Below are positions 24,864-43,222 of a stretch of 64,000 nucleotides of DNA, in pieces. Every line of letters starts with the position of its first letter. Within the stretch, counting starts at the first letter, position 1. Under the pieces are notes generated by a model. It had not been told where the DNA came from and did not search any database. It saw nothing but the letters and a program-made list of their open reading frames with translations. The position numbers and the translations under genes are program-made. Origin of the DNA: Spirochaetia bacterium (GTDB lineage: Bacteria > Spirochaetota > Spirochaetia > SZUA-6 > Bin103); assembly GCA_965199955.1 (NCBI GenBank), contig CBDATQ010000001.1, positions 2,006,284 to 2,070,283 of the forward strand, written 5' to 3'.

Positions 24864-26305
24864 GACAGGCCCCGGGCGTAGAACGCTTCCACGGCGAAGC
24901 GCTCGGGAAACAGGGTCACGAAATGGGCGATCAGCAATTGCCGCGCCAGCAGGCGCTTGTATTCGGCCGAGCCGCGCACGTCCGTGATCGGCGCGATCTC
25001 CTGCTGGGACATGCGCACGGCCTCCCACGCCGTTTCCAGGTCCAGGGCGCGGCCGCGCAGCGCCTGCGAGGTCTCGCGCAGGTAGAGCGGGATGGGCGCC
25101 ACGCCGCCCAGGCTGAGGTGCGCGTCGGCGATGGTGTCCCCGGTGCAGCGGATCGAGCAGGCGCTGTTGACCGACGCGATGTCCAGGCAGGTCCGCTTGG
25201 AGACCTTTTCGAAATTGACCTGGGCGGCGGCCGGATCGGCGAACGCCACCTCGGTGAGCAACTCGCCGGGCCGCAGGTCCATCTGCTTGTAGCCGCGGTA
25301 GAACTCCCGCAGCGGGACCGATCGCCGCGTGCCGCCGTCGTCCAGCACGACGCGCGCGTCCAGGGCCAGCAGGAGGGCGGTGAAGTCCCCGATCGGGGAG
25401 GCGTTGACGATGTTGCCGGCCAGGGTGGCGCGGTTGCGGATCTGCCAGGAGGCGATGAGGTGGTTGAACGCCCCGATGCGGGGCAGCGCCTCGACGACGC
25501 GCGGGTCGGCGCCGAACTCCTCGAAGGTGGTGAGCGCGCCGACGCGGAGCTCGCCATCGCGGACGCGAATGCGTTTGAGCGCCGGCCGCCGGTTGAGCAC
25601 CTCGACGCGGCGGTCCGGGATTTCCTCGCCCTGTTGCACGTACAGGTCGGTGCCGCCGGCGATGCGCACCTCCGGCTCTGCATCGGCGTCGGGTGCAGGT
25701 GTCTCTTCCTGCAGCGCCCGCAACCGCTCCGGGATGGTCGTGAAGTACGCGGGGATCGCTCCCGCCGCGGCCATCGTCATTACTCGATCGCCGCCGGTCC
25801 CGTCGAGCCGGCTGCCGATCCGGCGGGCCAGCGTGTCGGCGCAGTCCTTCAGCGAGCGGTAGCCGGTGCATCTGCACAGGTGGCCGCTCAGGGCGTATTT
25901 CACGTTTTCGAGGGAGAGCCCCCTGGTTGCGTCCAGCATCAGCCCGTGCAGGGACACCACGATGCCGGGCGTGCAGAACCCGCACTGCGTGCCGCCGTGC
26001 TCGACGACGGCCTCCTGCGCGGGGGTGAGCCCGGCTTCCAGGTTGCACCCCTCGATCGTGACCACGTGCCGGCCGTGCACTTCCGCCAGCGGCACCAGGC
26101 AAGAGGTGACCGGCTGGTAGCGGACCGCGTCGCCTGCAAGCTCTCCTATCAGGACGGCGCAGGCGCCGCAGTCGCCCTCCTTGCAGCCTTCCTTGGTGCC
26201 GGTCAGCCGCTCGCGATTCCGCAGGAAGTCCAGCAGCAGCAGCCCCGCCGGCAAGGACGTCTCCATCAGCCGGTCGTTGAGAATGAACCGAGTGCTCGGC
26301 GCCAT
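24860..26305 (-). CDS. xdhA: Xanthine dehydrogenase small subunit (2Fe-2S + FAD-binding)
   Basis: GCKEGDCGAC, GGTQCGFCTPG and HLCRCTGY ferredoxin motifs, followed by a FAD-binding CO-dehydrogenase-flavoprotein-like domain. Confidence 0.85.
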   Translation of the reverse strand: MAPSTRFILNDRLMETSLPAGLLLLDFLRNRERLTGTKEGCKEGDCGACAVLIGELAGDAVRYQPVTSCLVPLAEVHGRHVVTIEGCNLEAGLTPAQEAVVEHGGTQCGFCTPGIVVSLHGLMLDATRGLSLENVKYALSGHLCRCTGYRSLKDCADTLARRIGSRLDGTGGDRVMTMAAAGAIPAYFTTIPERLRALQEETPAPDADAEPEVRIAGGTDLYVQQGEEIPDRRVEVLNRRPALKRIRVRDGELRVGALTTFEEFGADPRVVEALPRIGAFNHLIASWQIRNRATLAGNIVNASPIGDFTALLLALDARVVLDDGGTRRSVPLREFYRGYKQMDLRPGELLTEVAFADPAAAQVNFEKVSKRTCLDIASVNSACSIRCTGDTIADAHLSLGGVAPIPLYLRETSQALRGRALDLETAWEAVRMSQQEIAPITDVRGSAEYKRLLARQLLIAHFVTLFPERFAVEAFYARGLS

Positions 26306-26311
26306 CGCCTG

Positions 26312-27277
26312 CTACCGGCGGTTGCGCTCGCGAAGGATCTGCGCGGCGATGCTGATGGCGATCTCCTCCGGCGTCTGGCTGCCGATGTCCAGACCCACCG
26401 GAGCGTGGATGCGCTCGATCGTCTCCGGGGAGACCCCTTCCTCCCGCAGGAGGGAGAATATCCGCTCGATCTTCTTCTTGCCGCCCATCAAGCCGACGAA
26501 CGGGCAGGGCAGGGCCGTGACGCCGAGGAGGGCGCGTACGTCGGTACGGTAGTCGGCGGTCATCACCACCACGGCGGTGGACTCTGGATGGGCGATCGAG
26601 GGTCCTGCTTGGTCGTAGTCCCTGACGATGGAAAGGCCACCGACCACGGTCTCGTGGTCTCGGCTGACCACGTTCGTGCGGGTGTCGAAGACCCGCACCC
26701 GGTAGCCCAGTGGCGACATCACTTCTCCCAGCGCCGCTGCGCAGTGGCCGCCGCCGACGATCGCGAGGCGGCGCCGATTGAGGAGGTCCTCCCGGTACCG
26801 CCAGGCGCCATGCGCCTCCGTGAAGGTGACGCGCGGCGCGTCGAAGCCGGCTCCGATCTCCGCCAGCCGCAGGCCGGCGTCGTCGATCTCGATCCAGCCG
26901 CTCTGATCGTGTCGGACTCTGTCCACGATGGTGCGCACGCTGGCCAGGTCGCGTGGTCCGTCCAGCACGCAGAAGATGTTGGTCTGGCTTCCCTCGCAGA
27001 TCAGGCCGGATTGATCACCGGACGCTTTCTCACTATGCACCAGCGTCTGCTTCGCCGGCCGATAGTTGCCGCACTGCAGCAGCGCCCTCGCTTGGTCGAC
27101 CAAACGGTGCTCCATGGCACCACCACCGATCGTGCCGAACAGCTCTCCCGAATCGGCGACCAGCAGCTTGGCGCCCGTGGTCCCAGGTGAGCCGCGGGTA
27201 TGTGCGGCCACGCAGGCGACGAACACCCGGCTGCCCGAACCGAGGTGCCCGTGAACCCGCTCCCAGAACGCGATCAT
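26312..27277 (-). CDS. xdhC: XdhC/CoxI family molybdenum-cofactor insertion accessory protein
   Basis: 321-aa ORF with the XdhC N-domain and a Rossmann-like LAIVGGGHCAAAL. Confidence 0.75.
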   Translation of the reverse strand: MIAFWERVHGHLGSGSRVFVACVAAHTRGSPGTTGAKLLVADSGELFGTIGGGAMEHRLVDQARALLQCGNYRPAKQTLVHSEKASGDQSGLICEGSQTNIFCVLDGPRDLASVRTIVDRVRHDQSGWIEIDDAGLRLAEIGAGFDAPRVTFTEAHGAWRYREDLLNRRRLAIVGGGHCAAALGEVMSPLGYRVRVFDTRTNVVSRDHETVVGGLSIVRDYDQAGPSIAHPESTAVVVMTADYRTDVRALLGVTALPCPFVGLMGGKKKIERIFSLLREEGVSPETIERIHAPVGLDIGSQTPEEIAISIAAQILRERNRR

Positions 27278-27833: not shown

Positions 27834-28549
27834 CTACACGCCGAGCCACGTCGCCCTGACGTCGGGACTCCGGTCAAGCTCCGCCGCGGTGCCGTGCCAG
27901 CGGATGCGGCCCTTGCCGAGCACGTAGACGTGCTCGGCAAGCCCGATGGCGAACGGGTAGTTCTGCTCCACCAGCAGCATCGTCATGCCGGCCGCCCGCA
28001 GGTCGTGGACGATTCCGGCGATGCGCTCGACGACGATCGGCGCCAGCCCCTCGGTCGGCTCGTCCAGGATCAGCAGGCGCGGTGACAGGGTGATGGCGCG
28101 CGCGATGGCCAGCATCTGCTGCTCGCCGCCGCTCAGCTCGTTGCCGCGGTTGCGGCGCCGCTCGGCCAGCAGGGGGAACCGCTCGTAGAGGTCCTCCACC
28201 GGGACGCGGTGGCGGCCGGTGCCCCGACGCCGGTTCCGGTTTAGGTTCAGGTGCTCGTCCACCGTGAGCGAGGCGAAGATGCCGCGCTCCTCGGGTACAT
28301 AGCTGACTCCCCGCCGCGCGACGCGATGCGGCGGCAGGCGCTCGATCGCCTCGCCAGCGAACCGGATGGTGCCGCGCGCCGCGGCGGCGATGCCCATGAT
28401 CGACTTGAGCGCGGTCGACTTTCCTGCGCCGTTGCGTCCGAGCAGCGCGACGACACTGCCGCCCGCCACCTCCAGCGACACGTTCTGCAGGACGTGGCTT
28501 CGCCCGTAGTAGGTGTCCACCCCCTCCATGGACAGCAGCGGGTCCGCCA

Positions 28550-28550
<1 letters not shown>
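27834..28550 (-). CDS. livF: Branched-chain amino acid ABC transporter ATP-binding protein
   Basis: GRNGAGKST Walker A, LSGGEQQ signature and LILDEP Walker B. Confidence 0.8.
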
Positions 28551-29295
<745 letters not shown>

Positions 29296-29298
<3 letters not shown>

Positions 29299-30309
29299 CG
29301 CTCGGCTTCTCCGCCGCATGACTGCCAGTGCCGCGTGCCGGATCGCCCAGGTGAGGCGCCCGTACAGGCCGTCCCTGGCCAGCAGGACGACGGCGATGAA
29401 GAACAGCCCCATGATGAGCTGCCAGTGATCGGCCATCTCCGGCGGGAGGGAGAGGCTTTTCCAGAACGCGCCGTCGTTCAGTTGATTGCGGAGGACGATG
29501 TACAGCGCCGCGCCGCCGGCGGCGCCGATCAGGCTGCCGCTGCCTCCCAGGATGACGATGATCAGCGCCTCGCCCGAGAGGGTCCAGAAGGCCAGGTCCG
29601 GGGACACGAAGCCGGTGTGCTGCGCCATCAGGGCCCCGGCCAGACCGGCGACCGCGCCCGCGGCGCCGAAGGCTGCCAGCTTGTAGCGCCGTACCGGGCA
29701 CCCGAGCGACGCCAGCCGGCCCGGGTTCTGGTGAATGGCCGTGAGCATCATGCCGAATGGAGAGCGGCGAAGGATCAGCAGGGCCAGGTAGACCAGCAGC
29801 GCGGCGATGAGGACTCCGGCGGCGAACACCGCCGGATCTCCGGAGTCCAGCCCGAGCGGGGCCAGATCGAAACGCGGCGTGCCGGCCATGCCGTTGTCTC
29901 CGCCGAAGACCCGCGCCTTGACGAAGTAGGCATGGACCATCTGCCCGATGGCGAGGGTGATCATGATGAAGAACACGCCGGTCAGGCGCACCGCGAAGAA
30001 GCCGACGCCCACGGCGATCGCCGCCGCGGCCGCCACCGACAGCCCCACCGCCGCGAGCGGCGGCCAGCCCCAGAGGACCGTGGCGGCGGCGGTGGCGTAG
30101 GCGCCGAGCGCCAGGAATCCCGCGTGTCCGAGCGAGACCATGCCGGCGGCACCCACCAGGAGGTCGAGGCTCATGGCGAAGATCGCCAGGATCGCCACCT
30201 CGGCCAACAGCTCCATTCCGAAGTAACCGGCCCCGAACCAGGCGGCGACGGCGATGCCCGCGAGGACTCCCGCCACCGGGAGCTGGAGGGGGTCGCGACC
30301 GTTCATCAC
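29296..30309 (-). CDS. livM: Branched-chain amino acid ABC transporter permease
   Basis: 337-aa multi-TM permease of the LivM type. Confidence 0.8.
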
Positions 30310-31187
30310 TGCTCTCCGCCGCGGACCGGGATCAGGCCGGCCGGCTTGATGAGCAGGATCATGGCCATGAGGGCGTAGATCGTTACCCGCGCCAGCTCGG
30401 GAAGCACGACCTGGCCGTAGGTGTCGGCGATGCCGATGATCAGCGAGCCGAGGGCCACGCCCTTGAGGCTACCGGGGCCGCCCAGCACCACGACGATGAG
30501 GGCCAGGATCAGCACCTTCATGTCCATCCCCGGCGCGATGGCGAGCACCGGCGCCGCGATCACGCCGGCGACTCCGGCCAGCAGGCACCCCAAGCAGAAC
30601 ACCAGGAAGAAGACGCGGCCGATGTCGAGGCCGAGCGCCGCCACCATGGTGCGGTCGTCCACGCCGGCGCGCACGATGGCGCCGACGCGGGTGCGCTCCA
30701 GCGCAAGGTAGAGCAGCAGGAAGGCAGCCACGCCCAGGGCGATGATGAACAGGCGGTAGGTGGGATAGACCTGTCCCAGCACGGAGCCGCGGCCGGACAG
30801 CAGCGCCGGCACGTCGATGATGTGCGGCAGCGATCCCCAGATGATGTCGACCGTCTCGATCCCGACGAAGATCAGGCCGAAGGTCACGAGCACCTGCTTC
30901 ATGGGGTCGGCCCGCTGCATGTGGCGCAGCAGTACCAGGTAGAGCAGTCCTCCGATCAGGGCGACGCCGAGCGGGGCAAGCAGCAGGGCCAGCCAGAAGG
31001 ACTCGAAGGCGCGGACTGCGCTCAGGGCCAGGTAGGCGCCGGCCATGAACAGCGTTCCGTGCGCCAGGTTGATGAAGTTCATCAGCCCGAACACCACGGA
31101 CAGCCCGATCGACAGCAGGAACAGCAGCGCCGAGAGCTGCAGCCCGTTGAGGGTCTGGACGATCAGGAACCCGGGATCAAGGAGCAC
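30306..31187 (-). CDS. livH: Branched-chain amino acid ABC transporter permease
   Basis: 293-aa multi-TM permease of the LivH type. Confidence 0.8.
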   Translation of the reverse strand: MLLDPGFLIVQTLNGLQLSALLFLLSIGLSVVFGLMNFINLAHGTLFMAGAYLALSAVRAFESFWLALLLAPLGVALIGGLLYLVLLRHMQRADPMKQVLVTFGLIFVGIETVDIIWGSLPHIIDVPALLSGRGSVLGQVYPTYRLFIIALGVAAFLLLYLALERTRVGAIVRAGVDDRTMVAALGLDIGRVFFLVFCLGCLLAGVAGVIAAPVLAIAPGMDMKVLILALIVVVLGGPGSLKGVALGSLIIGIADTYGQVVLPELARVTIYALMAMILLIKPAGLIPVRGGEQ

Positions 31188-31278
31188 GGTTACCCCGCCG
31201 CGCGAATTACCAGGTACAACAGGTGCACGGGATCCGACGCGGTGAACGTGCGTCGCGAGAGGATCAGCCCCTGGTCTG

Positions 31279-32457
31279 CTACAGCTCGCAGCCGTTGGGC
31301 GGGTCCTGGACGTCGGCCACCATGTCCTGGACCACCGCCGCGACGCCGTCGCCTTGGGCCTGGACCTCGAAGATGTAGACGTTCTGGATCACGTTGTTGG
31401 TTGCCGGATCGATGCGGAACGGTCCGCGGGGGCCGTCGAAGCGGATGTCGCGCATCGCCGCGACCAGGGCCGCCCTGTCCTCGGTGTCGCCGCCGGTGGC
31501 CCTGAGGGCCTCGACGATGAGTCGGGCGCTGTCGTAGGCGGCGACGCCGAACTCCGACCCGTCACGTCCGTGCGCGGCGCGGAACTTCTCCTGGAAGACG
31601 TGGTTCGCCGGCGTGTCGATCGACGGCACGTAGTTGAGGATCCCCAGGGTTCCCTCCGCGTCCATGCCCTGCGCGTTGACGTACAGCGCGGAGTTGAGCC
31701 AGCCGGCGCCGGCGAGCTGAATCTCGTCCTTCAGCCCGAAGGCCGCCCACTCCTTGACGAACTGGATCGCCGGGCCGCCCGCGAAGAACACGTACGCCGC
31801 ATCCGGGTTCGCGGCCTTCACCTTCGCCAGGTAAGGGCCGAAGTCCTCGGTCTCGCCCAGCGGCGGATACTCCTCGCCGATGACGGTGCCTCCGGCGGCG
31901 ACGAAGCCAGAGCGAAACGCCTCCATGGCCTGGTGTCCCGCCGCGTAGTCGAACGCCATCAGGAACACGTTTCGGTAGCCCCGGGCAGCCATCCACGGCC
32001 CCATCTCGCGGCTGATCTGCGCGTTGGAGAATGAAGAGCGCAGGATCCACGGGCTGCAGAGCGGGCCGGTGAGGTCGTCGTTGCCGGCGTTGGTGACGAT
32101 CAGCGGCACCTCGGCGTTGTGCACGAAGTCGCGCACGGCGCCGGCCACCGCGGAGGAGATGATGCCCACCACGATGTCCACCTCATCCCTGAGGACCAGT
32201 CTCTTGATCAGCGCCAGGCCGGTGCCCGGATTCGCTTCGCTGTCGGCATGGATCAGCTCTATGGGGCGACCGGCCACCTCGCGGCCGAACTCGTCGAAGC
32301 CCAGCTCCAGGGCCAGCGTCTGGTCGCCGCCGAGTCCGGCGCAGACCCCCGAGGAAGGCAGCAGCACGCCGATCCTGACCGGTTCGGCGCCGGCGCCGGC
32401 AGCGCACACGGTGAGAGCGGCGATCGCCGCCGCGACGGTCCTGATCACGCTTTTCAT
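31279..32457 (-). CDS. livK: Branched-chain amino acid ABC transporter substrate-binding protein
   Basis: Signal peptide MKSVIRTVAAAIAALTVCAAGAG followed by a periplasmic-binding type-I fold pattern. It is the first gene of the minus-strand operon. Confidence 0.8.
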   Translation of the reverse strand: MKSVIRTVAAAIAALTVCAAGAGAEPVRIGVLLPSSGVCAGLGGDQTLALELGFDEFGREVAGRPIELIHADSEANPGTGLALIKRLVLRDEVDIVVGIISSAVAGAVRDFVHNAEVPLIVTNAGNDDLTGPLCSPWILRSSFSNAQISREMGPWMAARGYRNVFLMAFDYAAGHQAMEAFRSGFVAAGGTVIGEEYPPLGETEDFGPYLAKVKAANPDAAYVFFAGGPAIQFVKEWAAFGLKDEIQLAGAGWLNSALYVNAQGMDAEGTLGILNYVPSIDTPANHVFQEKFRAAHGRDGSEFGVAAYDSARLIVEALRATGGDTEDRAALVAAMRDIRFDGPRGPFRIDPATNNVIQNVYIFEVQAQGDGVAAVVQDMVADVQDPPNGCEL

Positions 32458-32614: not shown

Positions 32615-35600
32615 ATGATGCCCGGCGCCACGGAAGTCGTCGGGGTCGGCGGCTGTCTGACGACGCCGCTGACGGTGGCCGGCATCGACCATACGTCCGT
32701 GCGGGCGGCGGTCGCCCGCGCGTTCGCGGAGCAGCGGGCGTTTCCCTTCCTGCCGGACACGGAGTGGAGCGCCGCTGTCCCGGAGCAGCACGCGGAGCGG
32801 ACGGCTGCCGTCCGCGCTGAGGCGGTTGCGGCGGCGACGAAGAGCCCCACGACCGCCGACCGATTCAACCGTGACGCGCGGCTGATCGAACGGCTGGATG
32901 CCGCCGTCCGCCTCACGCATGAAGCGATCGCCGCGATCGGCGGCGAGGGACGCCAGACGCTCGAACGGCGGCGATTCGTGCTGATCAGGGAAGCGCCGGA
33001 AGCCACCTGCCTCTACGAGGAAGGGGAGACCGGCGTCGTCGCGCGAGTCGGGCAGGGACCGCTGGAGCTGCGTCAGCCTACGATCTACCTGGGCCTGCGC
33101 CTGTTCGACCTGCTGGCCGCGGAGCAGGTAGATCGCGGCGGCACGGTGCCGGAAGCGCTGCTCTCCATCCTGCGGCTGGAAGAGCGTGCGATCGAGACCG
33201 GCTACTCGCACGTGGAGCCGCTGGACGCGCCCAGGCGCGAGGCCCTGGAACGCCTGTTCGGCGTCCTGCGCCAGCCGATCGCGGGACTGACGCCGGCCGA
33301 GCCCGAGCCGGAGCGGCAGCGGCGGCCGATGCGCTTCTCGCAGGCGCTCAGGCAGGCGACGCTGCGCCAGTTGAACGCACGGCGGGCCGACGCGCCGCTG
33401 GATTTCGACCCCGCCATATGCGTGTCCGCCATGCGCCGCCTGGAGCGCACCGCACAGCGCGCCAAGGCGTACGGCGGCGATTCGGTGCGCCGCGAGGTGA
33501 TGCGGCTGCTGGTCGCCGCCTCCGGGCACGACCTGGACGAGGTGCGCAACCACGCCAACCTGCTGCTGGAGCGCATGCTCGCCCCCAAGGAATTCGCCGC
33601 TCCGCTTGCGCGGACGTTCCTGACCGCCATGCAGGGGACGGAGCACCACTTCAGCTTCGATCTCCCGCGCAGCCGCGGCCGGTACCGGCTCCGGATCTAC
33701 CGGGGCCGCGGCCAACGGCGCTATCCGAGCGAGGCGGACCTGGACTACGTGGATGTCGATCTGGCCCGGTCGTCGCCGGGATCACCGCACACCGCCACCT
33801 GGCGATTCGACGAGCTCGGGCACTACGACTTCTGCGTGGCGAGGGAATTCGACAGCGGCCGCCGGGAGTGGGTTCAGGACGCCGAGTGCAGCGGGCGCAT
33901 CAACGTGCTGCCCGACCTCCGCGGCGAGCTGGTGTTGCAGATCTTTCCCGACATCCACGGACACACCCGCGCCTACTGGGCTGACGTCGAGCATCCGGGA
34001 CTGGTGTACAACGAGCACGGGCAGGTGATCCGCCAGGGCACGTTCGCGGACATCGCCGCGCACCTCCCGGAGATCAAGCGCAAGTACGGGTTCACCGCCA
34101 TCTACGTGCTGGGCGCGCAGAAACGCGGCAGCAACCGCGAGGACTGGACCGGCCACGCAACCTCGCCTTCGCCGTTCGCGCCGGAGAGCCTGACCGAGAT
34201 GGAGCCGGCGCTCGGCGGGAACGACGGCCTGCGGACCCTGGTCGCCGCCGCCCACGAGCTTGAGATCAAGGTGCTGCTGGACGTGATCCCGCACCTCAAC
34301 CGAAGGGTGCACGACGACGTGCCGGATGAGGACGTCGTGCAGTGCTTCGACGACGACGGCACCCTGGTCGCGCGCTCCTCGACCGACGGCCGCTACGGGA
34401 GCTGGAACGACGGCGTGCTGCTCAACTACCGGCGCCTGTCGGTATGGGAGTGGCTGGTCGATTCGGTGCGCGCCCTGATCGACCGGTTCGACGTCGACGG
34501 GGTGCGCTGCGACATTTCGCACGCCCTGCCGATCATGATGAAGCGCAACAATGCCCCGGCGGTGCCGGCCGGCCCCCGTTCTGACGAGGAGCAGGTCGAG
34601 GGCACCATAGTGGTCAACGAACGGGTCGACGACCACTATGTCACCACCGGGTTCTTCGACTCGGCGTGCCGGGACCTGATCGCCAGCCCCCTGCACTACC
34701 TGCTGATGCGCGAGATGGAGCAGGCCGCGCATGCGGCCGGCAAGCCCTTCTACGTCCACCTTGCCGAGGCGTACTGGGGACGTGAGCAGTACCTCAGCCG
34801 CGTCGGCATCGTTTCGTACAACTCGGCGCTGTTCAAGATCTGCGAGCGCATCGCCCAGGGGACCTCCGCGGTCGGCGAGGTCTACCACCTGTACGACCAG
34901 CACTACCGCGGCGCACTGCCGCCCGGCACCGAGTTGATCGGATTGTTCGGCAACCATGACGAGCGCCGCCCGGTCAACACCTTCGGCCGCGACAACCTGC
35001 GGCCCGTGCTCACGCTTACGTCGTTTCTGAGCAACGTGGTGATGGACTTCGAGGGCAACGCCGAGGGCGAGGCGTGGAAGGTGTTTCCGGACAACGTCTA
35101 CGTCGACTGGAACCGGTTCGACAACGCCGCCGACCGCAGCGTCGAGCGCATCTTCCGCGACGTGTACGCCATCCACCGCCGCAACCCGGGCCGCGGGATG
35201 CTGGTGCCTACCGACCATCCCCAGGTGGCCGCGGTGATCAAGCCCGCCCCCGAGGGACTCTGGCTGGCCGTGTGCAGCTTCTCGGCGGACAGCGCCACGG
35301 TGAGCGTCGACATGCGCGCCGCCGCCTCCTCGCTGGATGGCTCGATCGATCCCGCCGGGCGCTACGTGGTGGCGGATCCCACCTACTCGCCGGTCACCCG
35401 CCGCTACGCCCACTACACGGGAGAGGAGTTGCGACACTCCACGCTGACCACCTCCGTGAGCTACCGGCAGCGGGTGAAGCTGCTGCGCATCGACCGGATC
35501 GCCGACGACGACCTGGGCGGCGGGACGGCCGAATCCGGGTATCCGCGTTTCCTGCGCGATTCGTTCGACCGCCTGCAGGACGCGCCGTCCCGCGAGCGGC

Positions 35601-37516
35601 TGGACCCCTCGTTCGCGTACCGGGAGATCACGCGCGCTGCGGCGACTCGTGGCGGTCTGGGACGGTTTCTGGACGAGAAGCTGCTGCCCCTCTACGAGGA
35701 CGCCGAGCACGACGCCGTCGTCCTCGGCCTGAAGCGGGTGCTGTTTCACGCCTACCGGGAAGGCGGCCTGGGCCGCGGCGGCGAGGGAGCCAGGCTGCCC
35801 GCCCCCGGGAAAGGCCGCACGCGGCGCTCCCGGCTGCTGGCACGGGTGCTGGACGGACTGCGCAGCCGCCCGGTGGTGTTCGTGTCGGCGGAGGCGGAGC
35901 CGTTCTCCAAGAGCGGCGGACTGGCCAACGTGACCTGCGAGCTGCCGCGCGAGCTGGCCCGCCTGGGGGAGCGGCTGTACGTGATCACGCCGCTGTACCG
36001 CGCCGGCGAGCCGCGCGCGGTGGAGAAGATGCAGGCGGCGATCGACCGCTACGGCATCACCTACAGCGGCACGAACGTGAGCTTCCAGCTCGGCGACGAG
36101 CGCTACGAGGTGGGCGTGCACTCGGGCGAGGTCGACGGCGTGACCTACTACCTGCTCGACCACCACGAGCTGTTCGACGGGCTGTACTGGGGCTATCGCT
36201 CCAACGAGCGCATCCGCCGTCGCCTGGGCCTGGCGCGGGCGGCGGCAGAGGTGATCGTCAGCTTCGACCTCGATCCGCTGGTGGTCGCCACCAACGACGC
36301 GGCTGCCGGCCTGCTCACCGGCATCGTCCGAGCCGATCCGCACTATGCAGAACCCTTTGCGCGCACCAGCTTCGTGCATGTCATCCACAACGGCGGCTGG
36401 CAGTACTTCGACTGCTATGGCCGCTATGAGGACGGCACCGATCTGTTCGGGCTGTTCAACCTCCCCGGACACCACGTATCGCAGTTCACGGATCCGCGTG
36501 ACGACGGCCTGTTCAACCTGATGGCCGCCGGCATCCGCTTCGCGGACCGGGTGTTCACCGTGAGCCCCTCCTACGCGCGGCAGATCGAGCAGAACTGCGA
36601 CGGGCTGGAGCCGTTGCTGGAGGACGTGATCGGCATCAACAACGGCATCGCCCGCGGGTTCCGGCGCGGCGTGCGGCAGCGCCTGTCGCGCTCCGGGCTG
36701 GAGGAGCACCAGTACCCGCGGCTGCGCGCGCGTATCGCCGAGGACCCGTTGCTGCGCGCCAAGCTCGAACGGCGGTTCCCGGAGCTGCTGGCCGACGACC
36801 CGGACGCCGTCCGCTTCCGCAGCCAGGCGCGGCGAGACGAGGTCACCCGCATGCGCACCAAGCTGCTGGCGCAGCTCGAGTACGGGCTCACGGTCGATCC
36901 GGACCAGGTGCTGTACGTGATGATCCATCGGGTCAGCGACCAGAAGGGGTTTCAGATCCTGCTGGAGGCTTCCGAGGGGATCTTCCGCAACCTCGGCGTG
37001 CAGGCGATCCTGGGAGGTCCCATCGCGCCCAACGACCACCGTGCCGAGGAACTCGCCGCCGGCATGCACGCCCTGATGGAGTTCTATCCGGGCGCGGTCG
37101 CCACGCGGATCGGCTACCAGGAGATCAGCCTGCCGCTGCTGGCCGCCGACGCGTTCCTGATGCCGTCCCAGTTCGAGCCCGGCGGCATCTCCCAGCTCGA
37201 GGCGATGAGCTGCGGCTGCCTGGTGGTCGCGCACGCCACCGGTGGCCTGCGCGACACGGTGACCCCGCTGCAGCTTCGGGGCTCGACCGTGAGCGGGTAT
37301 GGCGTGCTGTTCGGGGACTACCAGGCCGACGCGTTCCTCGACGCGATGGCGCGCTGCACGTGGTTCTTCCGTCACGCCACGGCCGCGCAGATCCGCCGCG
37401 CGCGCAACAACGCGCGGCGCAACATCGTGTACTGGGACGGCGCCGCCCGCCGCTACCTGGAAGAGCTGCACGCCCTGCAGGAGACGATCCCGGCAGCGAA
37501 TCTCCCGCCCCAATAA
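32615..37516 (+). CDS. Multidomain alpha-glucan enzyme: unknown N-terminal region, GH13 alpha-amylase-family catalytic domain and GT5 glycogen/starch-synthase domain in one 1633-aa polypeptide
   Basis: It is a single ORF. GH13 regions GFTAIYVLG, LDVIPHLN, GVRCDISHALP, AEAYW and FGNHDERR lie at about 34000-35450. GT5 motifs FSKSGGLANV and QFEPGGISQLEAMSCG lie at about 35865-37516. A stem-loop sits right after the TAA stop. Confidence 0.7.
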   Translation: MMPGATEVVGVGGCLTTPLTVAGIDHTSVRAAVARAFAEQRAFPFLPDTEWSAAVPEQHAERTAAVRAEAVAAATKSPTTADRFNRDARLIERLDAAVRLTHEAIAAIGGEGRQTLERRRFVLIREAPEATCLYEEGETGVVARVGQGPLELRQPTIYLGLRLFDLLAAEQVDRGGTVPEALLSILRLEERAIETGYSHVEPLDAPRREALERLFGVLRQPIAGLTPAEPEPERQRRPMRFSQALRQATLRQLNARRADAPLDFDPAICVSAMRRLERTAQRAKAYGGDSVRREVMRLLVAASGHDLDEVRNHANLLLERMLAPKEFAAPLARTFLTAMQGTEHHFSFDLPRSRGRYRLRIYRGRGQRRYPSEADLDYVDVDLARSSPGSPHTATWRFDELGHYDFCVAREFDSGRREWVQDAECSGRINVLPDLRGELVLQIFPDIHGHTRAYWADVEHPGLVYNEHGQVIRQGTFADIAAHLPEIKRKYGFTAIYVLGAQKRGSNREDWTGHATSPSPFAPESLTEMEPALGGNDGLRTLVAAAHELEIKVLLDVIPHLNRRVHDDVPDEDVVQCFDDDGTLVARSSTDGRYGSWNDGVLLNYRRLSVWEWLVDSVRALIDRFDVDGVRCDISHALPIMMKRNNAPAVPAGPRSDEEQVEGTIVVNERVDDHYVTTGFFDSACRDLIASPLHYLLMREMEQAAHAAGKPFYVHLAEAYWGREQYLSRVGIVSYNSALFKICERIAQGTSAVGEVYHLYDQHYRGALPPGTELIGLFGNHDERRPVNTFGRDNLRPVLTLTSFLSNVVMDFEGNAEGEAWKVFPDNVYVDWNRFDNAADRSVERIFRDVYAIHRRNPGRGMLVPTDHPQVAAVIKPAPEGLWLAVCSFSADSATVSVDMRAAASSLDGSIDPAGRYVVADPTYSPVTRRYAHYTGEELRHSTLTTSVSYRQRVKLLRIDRIADDDLGGGTAESGYPRFLRDSFDRLQDAPSRERLDPSFAYREITRAAATRGGLGRFLDEKLLPLYEDAEHDAVVLGLKRVLFHAYREGGLGRGGEGARLPAPGKGRTRRSRLLARVLDGLRSRPVVFVSAEAEPFSKSGGLANVTCELPRELARLGERLYVITPLYRAGEPRAVEKMQAAIDRYGITYSGTNVSFQLGDERYEVGVHSGEVDGVTYYLLDHHELFDGLYWGYRSNERIRRRLGLARAAAEVIVSFDLDPLVVATNDAAAGLLTGIVRADPHYAEPFARTSFVHVIHNGGWQYFDCYGRYEDGTDLFGLFNLPGHHVSQFTDPRDDGLFNLMAAGIRFADRVFTVSPSYARQIEQNCDGLEPLLEDVIGINNGIARGFRRGVRQRLSRSGLEEHQYPRLRARIAEDPLLRAKLERRFPELLADDPDAVRFRSQARRDEVTRMRTKLLAQLEYGLTVDPDQVLYVMIHRVSDQKGFQILLEASEGIFRNLGVQAILGGPIAPNDHRAEELAAGMHALMEFYPGAVATRIGYQEISLPLLAADAFLMPSQFEPGGISQLEAMSCGCLVVAHATGGLRDTVTPLQLRGSTVSGYGVLFGDYQADAFLDAMARCTWFFRHATAAQIRRARNNARRNIVYWDGAARRYLEELHALQETIPAANLPPQ

Positions 37517-37540
37517 CCGGAGCCCACGGGGCTCCGGTTA
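37514..37540 (+). terminator. Stem-loop abutting the stop codon (11-bp stem AACCGGAGCCC/GGGCTCCGGTT, 3-nt loop)
   Basis: The stem-loop is seen directly in sequence and there is no U-tract; this is the GC-type intrinsic terminator common in high-GC genomes. Confidence 0.4.
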
Positions 37541-37560
37541 TTGGCCCACCCCGCCTTTGG

Positions 37561-37608
37561 CAAGGATCTGGCGTACCGGCCGCGCGCGGCCGGTACGCCA
37601 GATCCTTG
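37561..37608. repeat. Perfect 48-bp palindrome CAAGGATCTGGCGTACCGGCCGCG|CGCGGCCGGTACGCCAGATCCTTG
   Basis: The two 24-nt halves are exact reverse complements with no spacer. It lies in the 129-bp intergenic region between the convergent fusion gene and glgX, and is followed by CTCCTTTATAT on the plus strand. Confidence 0.6.
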
Positions 37609-37645
37609 CAGGTACTCAGCTCCTTTATATGATTATGTGCGCAAT

Positions 37646-39628
37646 CTACTCGCCGGACGCGGCCGCGAGGAGCACCAGGGAGCGGGGGGCCGCGTGGTAG
37701 ACCTCCTGGGGAGTGATCGGCAGCGCCTGGCCGAGATCGCAGATGTCGTGCGGCGACGGCAGCGCCGTGTCGATCGCCCGACGCCACGCGCCGCCGCAGC
37801 ACGCGGCGGGGACGGCGAACTCGCACGGCTCCTCGGCGGCGTTCAGGATCAGGCAGAGGTCCAAGGCCTCGTCGTGCAGGCACACGGCAAGCCGGGGCTC
37901 CCCGCTGCTCCAGTCGGGATACGCACCGCGCGGGTCCAGCCAGCGTATCTCCGAGCCATCGTCTTCATAGAACGTGTCGCGGCGCAGCGCAGGGTGGCGG
38001 GCCCGCAGCGCGATCACCTCGCGGCAGAAGCGGGCGAGCTCGGCGTTGCTCACGTGCAGGGTCCAGTCGTGCCAGGACACCTCGCTGTCCTGGCAATAGG
38101 CGTTGTTGTTGCCGCCCTGCGTGTGCGCCATCTCGTCGCCGCCCAGCAGCATCGGCGTGCCAAGCGACAGGAACAGGGTCGCCATCAGGTTCTTGCTCTG
38201 GCGCAGCCGCGTCGCGTGTATCTCGGGGTCGTCGGCGGGGCCCTCCACACCGTAGTTGGCGCTGAGGTTGTGGTCGCTGCCGTCGAGGTTGTCCTCGCCG
38301 TTCGCGGCGTTGTGCTTGGCGGCATAGCTGACCAGGTCCCGGAGGGTGAACCCGTCGTGCGATGTGACGAAGTTGATGCTGTGGACGGGCCGGCGGCCGT
38401 CGTCCCCGTACAGGTCGGCGCTTCCCGTCAGCCGCGTGGCGAGCGCCGCGGCAGAGCCGTCACCACGCCAGAAGCGGCGTACGTCGTCGCGGAAGCGGTC
38501 GTTCAGCTCCGCCCAGCGCTCGCCGGGAAACTGACCGACCTGGTAGGCCCCGGCGGCGTCCCACGCCTCGGCGATGATCTTGGTATCGCGCAGCACCGGG
38601 TCCTCGCCGATCCGCTCCAGGATCGGCGTGTTGGCGCTGAGGTTGCCGAACCGGTCGCGTCCGAGTACGGAGGCCAGGTCGAACCGGAAGCCGTCGACGT
38701 GCATCTCCACGGCCCAGTAGTGGAGGCAGTCGATGATCAGCTCGCGGACCACGGGATGGTTGCAGTTGAGGGTGTTATGGCAGCCGGTGAAGTCCAGGTA
38801 GCGGCTCGGATCGTCGGGGTCGAGCAGGTAATAGACGCTGTTGTCCAGTCCCCGGTAGGAGAAGGTGGGACCGTCCGCGCCCCGCTCCGGCGAGTGGTTG
38901 AACACCATGTCCAGGATCACCTCGATGCCGGCGGCGTGCAGGGCCTTGACCATCTCCTTGAACTCGCTCACCTGGCTGCCCGGCTCCGTTCCCGCGGCGT
39001 AGCGGCGCTTGGGGGCGAACAGGCCGATCGGGTTGTAGGCCCAGTAGTTGACCAGCGGCTCACCCGAAGCCGATCCGGGGGCGTGCTCGTCCGACTCGGT
39101 CACCGGCAGCAGCTCGACCGCGGTCACGCCCAGCTCGTTCAGATACGGGATGCGCTCGGCCAGGCCGCGGAACGTGCCGGGGTGCGCCACATCCGAAGAG
39201 GGGTGGACGGTGAATCCGCGCACGTGGGTTTCGTAGATCACCGTCCGCGCGGGCGGATGGCGTGGCGCACGGTCGTCGCCCCAGTCGAAGGCATCGTCCA
39301 CCACCAGGCAGCGGGGGCCGTCGGCGGGCAGGTCCGTCGCGCGAAGGCGAGGCGGCAGGGCGCAGGTGAACGCCTTGGCGTACGGATCGAACAGCGGGGC
39401 GTGCGGGTCGAAGAGGTGACCGGCCGCGGGCGCAAGGGGACCTTCCACCCGGTACAGGTAGGCGTGGCCGGGGCCCACACCGTCCACGACCAGGTGCCAG
39501 ATGTCCCCGGTGCGGTGCAGTGGAATCCGTGCGCTCGGTGCGGCGCTCCCGGCGTCGTCGAACAGCAGGAGGGTCACGGCCGTGGCATGCCGGCTGAACA
39601 GCGCGAACTGCGTGGCGCCGTCGAGCAC
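37646..39628 (-). CDS. glgX: Glycogen debranching enzyme (isoamylase-type, GH13_11 with N-terminal CBM48)
   Basis: 660-aa ORF. YETHVRGFT, DMVFNHS, GFRFDLASVL, EAWD and FVTSHDGFTL match GlgX-type debranching enzymes. Confidence 0.85.
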   Translation of the reverse strand: MLDGATQFALFSRHATAVTLLLFDDAGSAAPSARIPLHRTGDIWHLVVDGVGPGHAYLYRVEGPLAPAAGHLFDPHAPLFDPYAKAFTCALPPRLRATDLPADGPRCLVVDDAFDWGDDRAPRHPPARTVIYETHVRGFTVHPSSDVAHPGTFRGLAERIPYLNELGVTAVELLPVTESDEHAPGSASGEPLVNYWAYNPIGLFAPKRRYAAGTEPGSQVSEFKEMVKALHAAGIEVILDMVFNHSPERGADGPTFSYRGLDNSVYYLLDPDDPSRYLDFTGCHNTLNCNHPVVRELIIDCLHYWAVEMHVDGFRFDLASVLGRDRFGNLSANTPILERIGEDPVLRDTKIIAEAWDAAGAYQVGQFPGERWAELNDRFRDDVRRFWRGDGSAAALATRLTGSADLYGDDGRRPVHSINFVTSHDGFTLRDLVSYAAKHNAANGEDNLDGSDHNLSANYGVEGPADDPEIHATRLRQSKNLMATLFLSLGTPMLLGGDEMAHTQGGNNNAYCQDSEVSWHDWTLHVSNAELARFCREVIALRARHPALRRDTFYEDDGSEIRWLDPRGAYPDWSSGEPRLAVCLHDEALDLCLILNAAEEPCEFAVPAACCGGAWRRAIDTALPSPHDICDLGQALPITPQEVYHAAPRSLVLLAAASGE

Positions 39629-39813
39629 GGGTCGCGCCCAGCGGCTCCGGCCGGCCGCGGCGGGTGTTGGACGGCCCGGGAGAGCGGTGCACCGTGGTCA
39701 ATGAGTACCACCGGCAGGCCAGATGCGCCAGACGGTGGACGGCCGAGCGCGTTCCTGGCACTAATACGCACTCTGGATACGGTCTCGGAGCCGTTCCGCT
39801 GCGAGGGTCACGA
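39629..39813. promoter_or_regulatory. Divergent intergenic region between glgX and glgP (presumed promoters)
   Basis: 185 bp lie between the divergent start codons. No specific operator was recognised. Confidence 0.25.
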
Positions 39814-42378
39814 ATGACAAACCGACTCACCTTTACCGTCAAGCCCCACCTCCCGGAGCGCCTGGCGCCCCTGGCCGATCTGGCCCATGACTTCTGGATT
39901 ACCTGGCACTTCGACGCCATCCGCCTGTTCATGCGGTTCGGCGCCGACGCATGGGAGCAGGCCCAGCAGAGCCCTCTGCGGCTGCTCAGCGAGTTGCCGC
40001 AGGAGCGGCTCCACGAGATGGAGCGGGACAAGGCATTCCTCGCCCACATGGACCAGGTCATCGCCGACTACCACGATTACCTGCAGGCCGATCCGTGGTA
40101 CTCTGGACCTCGCGACGCCGTGGTCGCCTACTTCTCCATGGAGTTCGGCCTGGACGCCACCCTGCCGATCTATTCCGGCGGCCTGGGGGTGCTGGCCGGC
40201 GACCACTTGAAGAGCTGCTCCGACCTGGGGTTGCCGGTCGTGGGCGTGGGGCTGCTCTACCGCACCGGTTACTTCCGCCAGCGCGTCACCATGGACGGCC
40301 ACCAGCTCGAGAGCTTTCCGGCCAACGACTTCTACAACATGCCTCTCATGCTGTGCACTTCTGCAGACGGCGAGCCGGTGACGATTACCGTGGATCTGGG
40401 CGGAGAACGGGCGCATGCGTGCATCTGGCGCGTCCGGGTGGGACGCGTGCCGCTCTATCTGCTCGACACCGACATCGACGCCAACGACCCGTCGACGCGC
40501 GAGATCACCGGTCAGCTCTACGTGTCGGACCGCCGCATGCGCCTGCGCCAGGAACTGCTGCTGGGCATCGGCGGCATTCGCGCGCTGCGCGCCCTGGAGA
40601 TCCCGGTCGCGGTGACCCACATGAACGAGGGGCACTCGGCGTTCCTGGCCCTGGAGCGGGTCCGTGAGCTGATGCACGAGCACGGCATGAGCTACTTCGA
40701 GGCACTGCAGGCGGTGTGGAGCACCACGGTGTTCACCACCCACACGCCGGTGCCGGCCGGCAACGAGACGTTCGACCCGCACCTGGTGCTGGACCAGGCC
40801 AGAGCGCTGCGCTCCGCCCTGGGGCTGGACGAGCACGAGTTCCTGTCGCTGGGCCGCATCGGGCACGACGGCGACGCGCACGGCCAGTTCGGGCTCACGC
40901 CGCTCGCCCTGCGCCTGGCCGCGCACTGCAACGGGGTCAGCAAGCTGCACGGCCAGGTGTCGCGCCGCATGTGGCGCAGCCTGTGGCCGGGCGTGCCGGC
41001 GGACGAAGTGCCGATCCGCCACATCACCAACGGCGTCCACCTGCGGAGCTGGATCTCGCATGACGTCCAGGAGCTGCTGGTGCGCTACCTGGGGCCGGCG
41101 GTGGCCAAGCACGCGCCCGAGGTGGCGGTGTGGCGGCAGGTGGACAACATCGCCGACGAGGAGCTGTGGCGGACGCACGAGCGGCGACGCGAACGGGTGA
41201 TCTGGTTCGCCCGCCGGCGCATCGTGGCGCAGATGCGGCGCGAAGGGGCCGCGGAGGCCGATCTGCGGGCGGCCGAGGTGGCGCTGCGCCCGGACGCCCT
41301 GACGATCGGATTCGCGCGCCGGATTGCCGGTTACAAGCGCCCGGGCCTGCTCTTCCGTCAGCCGGAGCGCCTGGTGCGGCTGCTCAGCAGCCGCGAGCAG
41401 CCGGTGCAGATCATCTTCGCCGGCAAGTCGCACCCCAACGATCACCAGGGCAAGGAGATGATCCGGCGCATCGTCCAGTTCGCGACCGAGCACGACCTGC
41501 GCAGCCGGATGGTGTTCCTGGACGACTACGACATCAACGTGGCGCGCTACCTGGTCGCGGGCTGCGACGTGTGGCTCAACATCCCGCGCCGGCCGCACGA
41601 GGCCAGCGGCACCAGCGGCATGAAGGCGTCGGTCAACGGATCGCTGATGGTGTCCACCCTGGACGGTTGGTGGGACGAGGCGTACAGCCCGGACATCGGC
41701 TGGTCCGTGGGCTCAGGCGAGACCTACCAGGACGAGAACATCCAGGACGAGCTGGAGGCCGACGCCGTGTTCGCGGAGCTGGAGCACATGGTCATCCCGA
41801 TGTTCTACGACCGCAGCATCGACGGCCTGCCGCGCGCGTGGATCGCCAAGATGCGGCATTCGATGACCGTGATCGGCGAGCACTTCAGCGCGCAGCGCAT
41901 GGTCGCCGAGTATCACGGCAACCTCTACGAACCGGCGCTCGCGCACGCCCGCCGGCTGCACGACTCGGGGTACCGGGACGCCGTGGAGCTCGCCGGCCAC
42001 CTGCAGCGGCTGCACCACCACTGGCCGGGGATCGCGGTCGAGCAACTCGACTCCGACAGCTCTGCGATGCTGGAGGTGGGCGACTCATTGGACGTCACCG
42101 CGCGGATCCGGCTGGGCGGACTGGAGCCGTCCGACGTGCAGGTGGCGCTCTATCATGGCGCGTTGCCCGGCAGCATCGACCTTCAGCCGGGCGACGACGA
42201 GATCGTCGACGGGCAGAGCACGCCCATGGAGCTGATCGAACGGCACGGGGAGTCGGCGACCTACCGCGCGAGCGCGATGTGCCGGAAGACGGGGAGGGTG
42301 GCCGCGACGGTGCGCGTGATGCCCGACCATCCCTTCCTTCCCCATCCGTTCGTGCCGGGGCTGTTCCTCCAGGGATGA
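39814..42378 (+). CDS. glgP: Alpha-glucan phosphorylase (GT35, long bacterial GlgP type with a C-terminal DUF3417-like extension)
   Basis: ATG at 39814 (MTNRLTFTVKPHLPERL). It has AYFSMEFGLD, the pyridoxal-phosphate region EASGTSGMKASVNG, and a C-terminal extension. Confidence 0.85.
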   Translation: MTNRLTFTVKPHLPERLAPLADLAHDFWITWHFDAIRLFMRFGADAWEQAQQSPLRLLSELPQERLHEMERDKAFLAHMDQVIADYHDYLQADPWYSGPRDAVVAYFSMEFGLDATLPIYSGGLGVLAGDHLKSCSDLGLPVVGVGLLYRTGYFRQRVTMDGHQLESFPANDFYNMPLMLCTSADGEPVTITVDLGGERAHACIWRVRVGRVPLYLLDTDIDANDPSTREITGQLYVSDRRMRLRQELLLGIGGIRALRALEIPVAVTHMNEGHSAFLALERVRELMHEHGMSYFEALQAVWSTTVFTTHTPVPAGNETFDPHLVLDQARALRSALGLDEHEFLSLGRIGHDGDAHGQFGLTPLALRLAAHCNGVSKLHGQVSRRMWRSLWPGVPADEVPIRHITNGVHLRSWISHDVQELLVRYLGPAVAKHAPEVAVWRQVDNIADEELWRTHERRRERVIWFARRRIVAQMRREGAAEADLRAAEVALRPDALTIGFARRIAGYKRPGLLFRQPERLVRLLSSREQPVQIIFAGKSHPNDHQGKEMIRRIVQFATEHDLRSRMVFLDDYDINVARYLVAGCDVWLNIPRRPHEASGTSGMKASVNGSLMVSTLDGWWDEAYSPDIGWSVGSGETYQDENIQDELEADAVFAELEHMVIPMFYDRSIDGLPRAWIAKMRHSMTVIGEHFSAQRMVAEYHGNLYEPALAHARRLHDSGYRDAVELAGHLQRLHHHWPGIAVEQLDSDSSAMLEVGDSLDVTARIRLGGLEPSDVQVALYHGALPGSIDLQPGDDEIVDGQSTPMELIERHGESATYRASAMCRKTGRVAATVRVMPDHPFLPHPFVPGLFLQG

Positions 42379-42442: not shown

Positions 42443-43222
42443 ATGAGCCCCGGCACGCGCGGCATCATCATCGGAGCCGGCCGCGGCAGTCGCTTGATGC
42501 CTGCCACGGAGAACACGCCCAAGTGCTTCGCCGAGGTGGGCGGGAAGCGCATACTCGACTGGGTGCTGGCGGCCTTCCAGGACAACGGCATCAACGATGT
42601 CTGCTTCATCGGTGGCTACAGGATCGACGTCGTCCGCGCAGCGTATCCCCGGCTCACGTTCCGAACCAACGCCAACTGGGAGCGCAACAACATCCTTGCC
42701 TCCCTGATGCACGCCGAGGATCTGATGGACGGGCCATTCATCTGCTGCTACTCCGACATCCTGTTTACCCCGGAGGTCATTCGGCGGGTGATGAACGACT
42801 GCCGCGACATCGCTCTGGTCGTGGACACGGAGTGGTCCGATCGCTACCGATACCGCACTGACCACCCGGCGGACGACGCCGAGAAGGTGATCGCGGCGGA
42901 TGGACGGATCACGCGCATCCATCGTGACATTGGGGAGTCTGCCGCGTACGGCGAGTTCACAGGCGTCTCGAAGTTCTCCCGCTCGGGAGCCACGCTCTTG
43001 AGAGAGCACTATCATCGCTGCCGGCGCCGTTACGCCGGTGCCAGCTTCCGAGAGGCGCCGTCATTCGAGAAGGCCTACCTCATCCATCTGTACCAGGAGA
43101 TGCTGGAACAGGGCGTGCCAATCGCGCACGTCGACACGCCCGGAGAGTACGTGGAGATCGACACCCAGCAGGACTTCGAGCTGGCGCGCGCGCACTGGGA
43201 CGGTGGTGGCGCGCGTGGGTGA
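42443..43222 (+). CDS. LicC-like NTP-transferase (sugar-phosphate/phosphocholine nucleotidyltransferase family)
   Basis: GIIIGAGRGSRLMPATENTPKCFAEVGGKRIL is the G-x-G-x-R-L...TENTPK signature. The 259-aa product has no C-terminal LbH domain. GC is about 62%, lower than the neighbours. Confidence 0.55.
   Translation: MSPGTRGIIIGAGRGSRLMPATENTPKCFAEVGGKRILDWVLAAFQDNGINDVCFIGGYRIDVVRAAYPRLTFRTNANWERNNILASLMHAEDLMDGPFICCYSDILFTPEVIRRVMNDCRDIALVVDTEWSDRYRYRTDHPADDAEKVIAADGRITRIHRDIGESAAYGEFTGVSKFSRSGATLLREHYHRCRRRYAGASFREAPSFEKAYLIHLYQEMLEQGVPIAHVDTPGEYVEIDTQQDFELARAHWDGGGARG

Follow-up and report, generated by a model that had tools for sequence, protein, structure and literature searches.

We analysed a 64-kb window of a Spirochaetia bacterium genome (contig CBDATQ010000001.1; "the window" denotes this whole stretch of 64,000 nucleotides, and all positions are counted along it). 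Between positions 32615 and 37516, its plus strand encodes one protein of 1633 amino acids (aa) and 180 kDa that joins a GH13 amylase-family module to a GT5 glycogen synthase-type module. The gene is a single ATG-started open reading frame (ORF), whose GC contents by codon position (0.71/0.47/0.91) resemble those of other real genes in this DNA of about 69% GC throughout; the third-position value (GC3) is even along the whole ORF. An earlier note, made from the DNA letters alone, had described one uninterrupted frame with both a GH13 and a GT5 part. The ORF is indeed as described, its coding signal is strong, Pfam finds both modules, and all motifs quoted there occur in the translation. The segment bounds listed here come from AlphaFold models of family alignments, combined with conservation; model quality is given as the predicted local distance difference test (pLDDT).

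32615–37516, plus strand: whole ORF, N-domain/GH13/GT5 enzyme of 1633 aa (ORF list, translation, GC3 of 0.91, full-length homologues).
32654–33280, plus strand: N1, an alpha/beta domain, aa ~14–222 (invariant R119, R120, E126, G146, G148, P149, E189, T195, G196 and H199).
33341–33580, plus strand: N2, a HEAT/ARM-like helical segment, aa ~243–322 (AlphaFold helices 243–322, model pLDDT 83; weak ARM/HEAT-repeat matches over ~85 residues; conservation).
33623–33925, plus strand: beta-sandwich before the GH13 barrel, aa ~337–437 (AlphaFold model with 9–10 strands, pLDDT ~88–93).
33926–35194, plus strand: GH13 (beta/alpha)8 barrel and domain B, aa ~438–860 (nucleophile D633, acid/base E718, transition-state stabiliser D782; D599, equivalent to Asp135 of AmyB).
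35195–35509, plus strand: GH13 domain C beta-sandwich, aa ~861–965 (AlphaFold strands 527–626 of model m7af6274b00e7).
35510–35869, plus strand: helical inter-module domain or linker, aa ~966–1085 (AlphaFold helices 641–748, model pLDDT 74; per-domain identity).
35870–37489, plus strand: GT5 synthase of GlgA type with a GT-B fold, aa ~1086–1625 (Pfam PF08323 and PF00534, NCBIfam glgA models, alignment with E. coli GlgA, invariance).

In the models, a disordered loop separates N1 from N2. The helical linker is the least conserved part of the chain (25% identity to distant homologues), and its length is conserved among homologues. We found no membrane segment, the highest 19-residue Kyte–Doolittle mean across the protein being 1.33, and the hydropathy of the N-terminus is neither hydrophobic nor signal-like. 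The protein is therefore soluble and cytoplasmic, in agreement with the absence of a membrane or export domain that had been noted before.

The fusion is not the one-off rarity for which it might have been taken from a single genome. A search covering 5.8 billion proteins returned 215 relatives, of which the best 120 are almost all full-length (~1612–1675 aa, 98–100% coverage) at 45–98% identity, and the same architecture recurs in more than 120 protein clusters. Scanning one genome per GTDB species, we found 193 encoding stretches, and the best 80 of these, on which all locus counts below are based, are full-length; of the 80, 76 are labelled as spirochaete or leptospire. The survey for the same fusion in other genomes, which the earlier note had proposed, thus finds the family conserved across Spirochaetota; the species genomes that carry it number at least 80 and up to 193. 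High-GC "Spirochaetia bacterium" chromosomes, assembled as metagenome-assembled genomes (MAGs), share 97% identity with the window itself. Conservation was measured in an alignment of 40 homologues with 45–92% identity (A1), where it runs the whole length of the protein with a mean column identity of 60%. As far as sequence searches reach, this tri-modular N-domain/GH13/GT5 family is specific to Spirochaetota. Relatives, where named, are annotated as "glycogen/starch synthase" from Spirochaetota MAGs and Salinispira pacifica; the fusion is thus already present in databases, but only under a generic name, and is uncharacterised. In the literature we found no description of a bacterial GH13–GT5 fusion of such architecture, nor of spirochaete glycogen enzymology on it.

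The gene is one unbroken ORF in 77 of the 80 loci (median 1624 aa). In one MAG (locus L033, Spirochaetes bacterium Dive96_bin3.202) an in-frame TAA at 13262–13264 stands where the GAA codon of the invariant Glu1119 is expected, inside the GT5 module; it would be either a nonsense mutation that gives a pseudogene or a sequencing error. Because the TAA takes the place of an invariant Glu codon, the apparent split reflects a point change in a single genome; it marks neither a boundary between genes nor a fission between domains.

The GH13 module is recognised by Pfam weakly but above threshold (Alpha-amylase, aa 475–559, E = 3.6e-7; the score of 30.2 bits exceeds the gathering cut-off of 22). Its motifs are GFTAIYVLG, LDVIPHLN (D556/H560), GVRCDISHALP (R631/D633/H636), AEAYW (E718) and FGNHDERR (N780/H781/D782), and all nine of these residues are invariant both in the 40 homologues and in an outlier of about 30% identity. 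The module has the (beta/alpha)8 barrel, domain B and domain C of GH13 enzymes together with the catalytic triad and conserved sequence regions (CSRs) I–IV, so that the complete catalytic set reported in the earlier note is present and invariant across the family.

By both sequence-profile and fold comparison, the closest matches of this module are Thermotoga neapolitana AmyB (4GKL) and the Lactiplantibacillus plantarum enzyme 3DHU. The match list runs from 3dhu (26.2) through H. orenii AmyA (1wza, 25.9), 4gkl (25.7) and GlgE (3zss, 24.1) to branching enzymes (19–22), all solved structures matching at 11–18% identity; in sequence, branching enzymes are the next-best matches after 4gkl and 3dhu. 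4GKL and 3DHU are the founders of the CAZy subfamily GH13_48, which comprises exo-acting maltogenic amylases (PMC11239784). In this subfamily Asp135 of AmyB, which binds the non-reducing end, is conserved in 95% of members, and other subfamilies do not conserve it (PMC11239784). This residue of 4gkl and its counterpart in 3dhu, also an Asp, both align with D599 of the fusion, which is invariant in the family. Further GH13_48 signatures are a CSR-II in which Cys immediately precedes the nucleophile (in 81%, with A, V or L in the rest), L-[DN] at the end of CSR-V, G-Q at the end of CSR-VII and N-H at the end of CSR-I (PMC11239784). The fusion ends CSR-V with L603–N604 (Leu in 33 of 40 homologues, Asn invariant), and the residue before the nucleophile is Cys (C632) in the window's clade (8/40), Phe in 31/40 and Tyr in 1/40. 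The module is best described as GH13_48-like, and it is possibly a subfamily of its own.

By its profile scores the module is not GlgB-like. GlgB profiles fall far below their cut-offs on it (NF003811, 32.5 against 741 bits; TIGR01515, 28.3 against 464 bits), and the GlgB, TreZ and amylase models of NCBIfam match it only faintly. CBM48 was detected on the fusion neither by Pfam nor by hhalign against the neighbouring GlgX. The latter comparison pairs the barrel only, and a CBM48 identity of the beta-sandwich at aa ~337–437 is not supported. The barrel also carries family-specific conserved inserts after beta1, after beta4 (~45 aa, between beta4 and beta5) and after beta8. They lie in the highly conserved segments aa ~447–473, ~638–695 (window ~34526–34700) and ~813–841, with invariant residues that include M642, K643, N646, R655, G663, N668, H674, T678 and C685. 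The inserts may form acceptor-site or inter-module contact elements.

The GT5 module is more readily assigned: Pfam places Glyco_transf_5 (PF08323) at aa 1087–1336 (E = 3e-40, 138.9 bits against a cut-off of 22.7) and Glycos_transf_1 (PF00534) at aa 1428–1579 (E = 2e-14, 54 bits against 26.4), and NCBIfam glgA models match with E-values down to 6.6e-65. Its best solved relatives are the GlgA enzymes of E. coli and A. tumefaciens and the plant and cyanobacterial starch synthases. The translation contains FSKSGGLANV (K1099, G1101–L1103) and FEPGGISQLEAM (E1521/E1529). Functional residues of E. coli GlgA correspond to residues of the fusion (K15 to K1099, H161/N162 to H1258/N1259, R300 to R1439, K305 to K1444 and E377 to E1521), and the TGGLxDTV motif is preserved. 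Most GT5 functional residues are invariant in the 40 homologues, K1099 and D1228 being at least 90% conserved, and the ~30%-identical outlier keeps all but K1099. A stretch of ~37 extra residues lies at aa 1338–1405, between the two Rossmann halves. The full GT5 glycogen/starch synthase domain that the note had read from motifs is thus borne out by profiles and alignment, and the module is predicted to be a retaining GT-B glucosyltransferase of GlgA type and to be catalytically competent.

N-terminal to both modules lie ~335 residues for which we found no match in Pfam, NCBIfam, the PDB or by fold. The earlier headline had put the unrecognised N-terminus at about 420 aa. This stands for the first ~335 aa but not for residues ~337–437, which are modelled as a beta-sandwich joined to the GH13 barrel; the same note's Ig-like sandwich before the barrel corresponds to this segment. 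A profile search (A2) of 1.84 billion cluster representatives gave 66 matches, nearly all of them fragments of the fusion family; one (P0143) was discarded as frameshifted junk. A few stand-alone proteins of ~210–260 aa without any Pfam domain match N1 (aa ~30–220), namely P0162, P0165, P0166, P0167, P0174 and the product of L082 1643–2368. They share the motifs RFVLxRE, LYFGL and EQKAIxTGY with the N1 of the fusion. No glucan genes were seen in the contexts of these stand-alone homologues. In two independent metagenome contigs, the gene directly upstream of the homologue encodes a NarL/GerE-type response regulator, a weak hint at a regulatory role. N2 is marked by the motif LLVAASGHDxxEVRNxAN, with H305, D306 and R311 invariant; together with R119, R120, E126, E189, R191 and H199 these make up a set of invariant Arg, Glu and His residues (and one Asp) that suggests a ligand- or partner-binding function. 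The N-domain appears to be essentially confined to the fusion family and is strongly conserved there.

Downstream of the fusion gene, the window contains the following features.

37510–37609, no strand: two perfect palindromes between the convergent stop codons, at 37510–37544 (16-nt arms) and 37560–37609 (25-nt arms; repeat search).
37646–39628, minus strand: GlgX debranching enzyme (CBM48 and GH13), convergent with the fusion (TIGR02100, 721 bits against a cut-off of 640.9; Pfam).
39664–42378, plus strand: alpha-glucan phosphorylase (DUF3417 and Phosphorylase; TIGR02094, 805 bits against a cut-off of 191.7; Pfam).
42443–43222, plus strand: sugar-1-phosphate nucleotidyltransferase-like protein (NTP_transf_3, Pfam PF12804; NCBIfam matches weak and far below cut-offs).

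The placement of the fusion gene, convergent with glgX and near glgP, is therefore as first described, and neither glgB nor glgC is found among the main ORFs of the window, again as had been stated. The stop codons of the fusion gene and glgX are separated by 130 bp. The hairpin at 37510–37544 overlaps the TAA stop, and the 37560–37609 element is a loop-less perfect palindrome of 50 bp that is unique in the window. A T-run follows neither of them; the pair is probably a bidirectional terminator.

Across the 80 loci, GlgX is adjacent to the fusion in 15, GlgP in 14 and the GH77 enzyme MalQ in seven (L014, L019, L021, L025, L026, L043 and L076; for example, L025 4783–6351), in clades only 40–47% identical. 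Five loci have a compact malQ/fusion/glgX arrangement without glgA, glgB or glgC, in a clade 40–47% identical to the window's protein. In none of the 80 loci does a second GH13/GT5 synthase-like or branching-like paralogue (glgA, glgB) lie within ±10 kb. As GlgX, GlgP and MalQ recur beside the fusion, its recurrent link is to enzymes that dismantle alpha-1,4/alpha-1,6 glucans. The same does not hold for the LicC-like nucleotidyltransferase that the earlier note had placed just downstream of glgP. It is syntenic in only 3 of the 80 loci and probably incidental for that reason, and on the same count we rejected the NTP_transf_3 protein as a substitute for GlgC. The genes most often found next to the fusion in distant loci encode an unknown protein of 197 aa and HolA, an uninformative synteny. 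Twelve distant loci also carry a class-I adenylate cyclase gene (~910 aa) ~1.8 kb downstream of the fusion, for example at L029 16585–19317; this could point to control of glucan storage by cAMP or simply to synteny within the lineage.

Bacterial glycogen is synthesised by separate enzymes, GlgC, GlgA and GlgB, with control exerted at GlgC. At a probability of roughly 0.6, we read the spirochaete protein as a glycogen-type synthase of the cytoplasm that carries its own module for processing the non-reducing ends of glucan chains, plausibly uniting two activities in one polypeptide. The GT5 module would elongate the non-reducing ends of a cytoplasmic alpha-1,4-glucan from a nucleotide sugar. 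The GH13_48-like module would engage the same ends and cut an alpha-1,4 bond a few residues in; the short unit would then be either released (trimming, or generation of primers or maltose) or transferred (transglycosylation, possibly branching). The N-terminal ~335 residues would probably regulate or scaffold both activities, and GlgX, GlgP and MalQ, which recur beside the gene, would consume the resulting glucan. A non-canonical alpha-glucan as the product, which the earlier note had proposed, is conceivable as well.

Several observations count against this reading. The GH13 module is only 16–18% identical to 4gkl and 3dhu, its closest solved relatives (16% to AmyB). Most of the family has Phe, and not the Cys of GH13_48, before the nucleophile; CSR-I is P559–H560 with a one-residue deletion where GH13_48 has N-H; and CSR-VII has G814 followed by Ser or Asn (29 and 11 of 40) where GH13_48 has G-Q. 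Exo-action is therefore an extrapolation. Segments by the active site (aa ~447–473, 638–645, 669–683 and 813–841) have pLDDT values below 50 in the AlphaFold model of the module. On the synthase side, the best GlgA equivalog score is 219.6 bits (TIGR02095) against a cut-off of 328.45, and all PRK00654 models stay far below theirs; as the score falls below every NCBIfam GlgA cut-off, donor and linkage specificity could differ from those of GlgA. Moreover, the lysine of the KxGGL loop, K1099, is replaced by Met in P0026 and by Thr in P0145, both of which keep the other catalytic residues. Among the distant loci, the majority have unrelated housekeeping genes, holA for instance, next to the fusion. 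Finally, biochemical data on any member of the fusion family were not found in the literature.

Within the proposed synthase with an end-processing module, the fate of the cleaved unit can be read in two ways. The GH13 module may be a purely hydrolytic maltogenic exo-amylase that releases maltose or short malto-oligosaccharides, which could serve to give the synthase more primers, restrict how long the chains grow or combine storage and mobilisation in one protein as a regulated switch. Among characterised proteins its nearest relatives are T. neapolitana AmyB and the L. plantarum enzymes, all of them maltogenic hydrolases with exo-action, and the fusion retains the canonical His of CSR-I and CSR-IV, which is reported lost in fungal GH13 transglycosylases; both points favour exo-hydrolysis, and the invariance of D599 and the catabolic nature of GlgX, GlgP and MalQ are in line with it. 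On the other hand, an end-attacking hydrolase fused to an end-extending synthase looks futile unless tightly regulated, the identity to AmyB is low, and the family-specific inserts by the active site argue for a changed specificity. We regard pure hydrolysis as possible, if on balance rather unlikely. If true, it would make the protein an unusual but otherwise unremarkable domain fusion.

Alternatively, still within the proposed synthase with an end-processing module, the GH13 part might stand in for GlgB and move the cleaved segments to O-6, so that one chain makes branched glycogen. The association with GlgX together with the lack of a nearby glgB favours such a branching or transfer role. 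The alpha-1,6-specific GlgX is the commonest functional neighbour, glgB is missing both from the 64-kb window and from the ±10 kb around the fusion in the 80 loci, and MalQ already provides alpha-1,4 disproportionation in seven of them. The conserved insert after beta4, on the acceptor side, is unique to the family, and the rank of branching enzymes directly behind 4gkl and 3dhu in sequence is also consistent with branching. We consider this outcome unlikely, less so than the readings that follow.

A wider version of the same idea, which we put forward as speculation with the odds well against it, is a self-sufficient cytoplasmic glucan factory. Here a new non-reducing-end transglycosylase or branching enzyme derived from GH13_48 would work in cis with a GlgA-type synthase, and the N-domain would be an allosteric sensor that shifts control from GlgC to the synthase, as in eukaryotes. 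If true, branching or remodelling activity would have arisen in GH13 independently for a third time, and bacteria would have a soluble analogue of the design of Ags1, the fungal alpha-1,3-glucan synthase.

The resemblance to Ags1/Mok1 had been drawn in the earlier note as one of architecture, and it could be taken further to a bacterial counterpart in which GT5 makes a non-canonical (e.g. alpha-1,3) glucan and GH13 joins the chains. In Ags1 the GH13 domain is extracellular and the GT5 domain cytoplasmic, with a transmembrane channel between and after them and a C-terminal multipass export domain, and the two domains have been proposed to work on a single growing alpha-glucan (PMC12305055). Aah1/Aah3 and the GPI-anchored GH13 enzymes of A. 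niger are without the conserved active-site His, while the GH13 domain of Ags1 is only described as lacking key catalytic residues (PMC12305055). Compared with this description of Ags1, the fusion shares a GH13 part N-terminal to GT5 in one polypeptide, and its GT5 module scores under all GlgA equivalog cut-offs. The likeness goes no further than domain order: the fusion has no signal peptide, transmembrane helix or export domain, so that both of its modules are cytoplasmic, and H560 and H781, conserved His residues whose loss is the mark of the fungal GH13 transglycosylases related to Ags1, are present and invariant. In addition, its GT5 module is most like ADP-glucose-dependent GlgA and starch synthases, with their functional residues, and the neighbours GlgX, GlgP and MalQ act on alpha-1,4/alpha-1,6 glucans. 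No Ags-named chain appeared among the PDB matches of the fusion protein. A bacterial Ags1 counterpart is accordingly very improbable.

Least credible of all is an artefact, in which an amylase gene and glgA were merged through a missed stop or frameshift or the gene is a decaying pseudogene: for this speaks the in-frame TAA within the GT5 module of one related MAG (L033), a GAA-to-TAA point change in a single genome, and against it the unbroken ORF of ~1620 aa, which recurs across more than 120 protein clusters and, of the 80 independent loci, in 77, from varied assemblies and sequencing technologies including closed chromosomes, the conserved linker length and the uniform GC3.

Among known systems, stand-alone GlgA (E. 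coli 2QZS/3D1J, A. tumefaciens 1RZU) and the plant and cyanobacterial starch synthases resemble the C-terminal ~540 aa of the fusion in their GT-B GT5 fold. GlgA and the fusion share the KxGGL loop, the H-N pair, R300/K305, E377 and TGGLxDTV. However, GlgA is a separate protein of ~480 aa, whereas the GT5 part of the fusion is the C-terminal third of 1633 aa, has a ~37-aa insert and scores below the GlgA equivalog cut-offs. The GH13_48 enzymes AmyB (4GKL) and 3DHU share with the fusion the triad, the Cys before the nucleophile (in the window's clade), the L-N of CSR-V and the non-reducing-end Asp; unlike the fusion, with its GT5 partner and its beta1, beta4 and beta8 inserts, most members of GH13_48 are simple A-B-C enzymes about 420 aa long. 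A fusion to GT5 is not mentioned in the paper on the subfamily (PMC11239784).

The chlamydial GlgA–GlgB fusion of Criblamydiaceae/Waddliaceae, in which GlgA is N-terminal and the canonical GlgB part is reported to be inactive (PMC11046441), is likewise a bacterial single chain that pairs a GT5 synthase with a GH13 enzyme of glycogen metabolism. Its module order is opposite to that of the spirochaete fusion, whose GH13 part is amylase-like with an intact and invariant triad. GlgB–MalQ (Neisseria), TreS–Mak and GlgX–MalQ are precedents for joining consecutive alpha-glucan enzymes in bacteria, but none of them pairs a nucleotide-sugar synthase with an amylase-type GH13 or has the N-terminal domain of the fusion. 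Fusions of glucan enzymes are thus a known theme and not surprising in themselves; what is new is the unprecedented GH13 partner module together with the orphan N-domain.

A whole lineage, many uncultured Spirochaetia and Leptospirales, keeps one 180-kDa chain where the textbook pathway has separate enzymes. In the fusion, a synthase is joined to an enzyme of amylase type that is predicted to work on exactly those chain ends which the synthase extends, and to a conserved domain of ~335 residues without known relatives. The function of its GH13 module could uncover another way of making branched or size-controlled alpha-glucans, a novel specificity in the industrially important GH13 family, or a new regulatory domain for polysaccharide storage. 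Being soluble, the protein would also offer a tractable model for GH13–GT5 coupling, which in fungal Ags1, a membrane-bound antifungal target, is difficult to investigate.

Elsewhere in the window, two gene groups upstream of the fusion are unrelated to glucan metabolism. One is a complete ABC transporter of the branched-chain amino acid type (27834–32457, minus strand; ATPase, two permeases and binding protein), which is divergent from the fusion, and the other a xanthine dehydrogenase-type cluster (22545–27277, minus strand) with a 2Fe-2S/FAD subunit and an XdhC accessory protein. Further downstream, beside an AlkZ-like DNA glycosylase, the minus strand encodes a protein of 674 aa (60424–62448) whose domain is GHL6 ("hypothetical glycosyl hydrolase 6"), another uncharacterised candidate for a carbohydrate-active protein.

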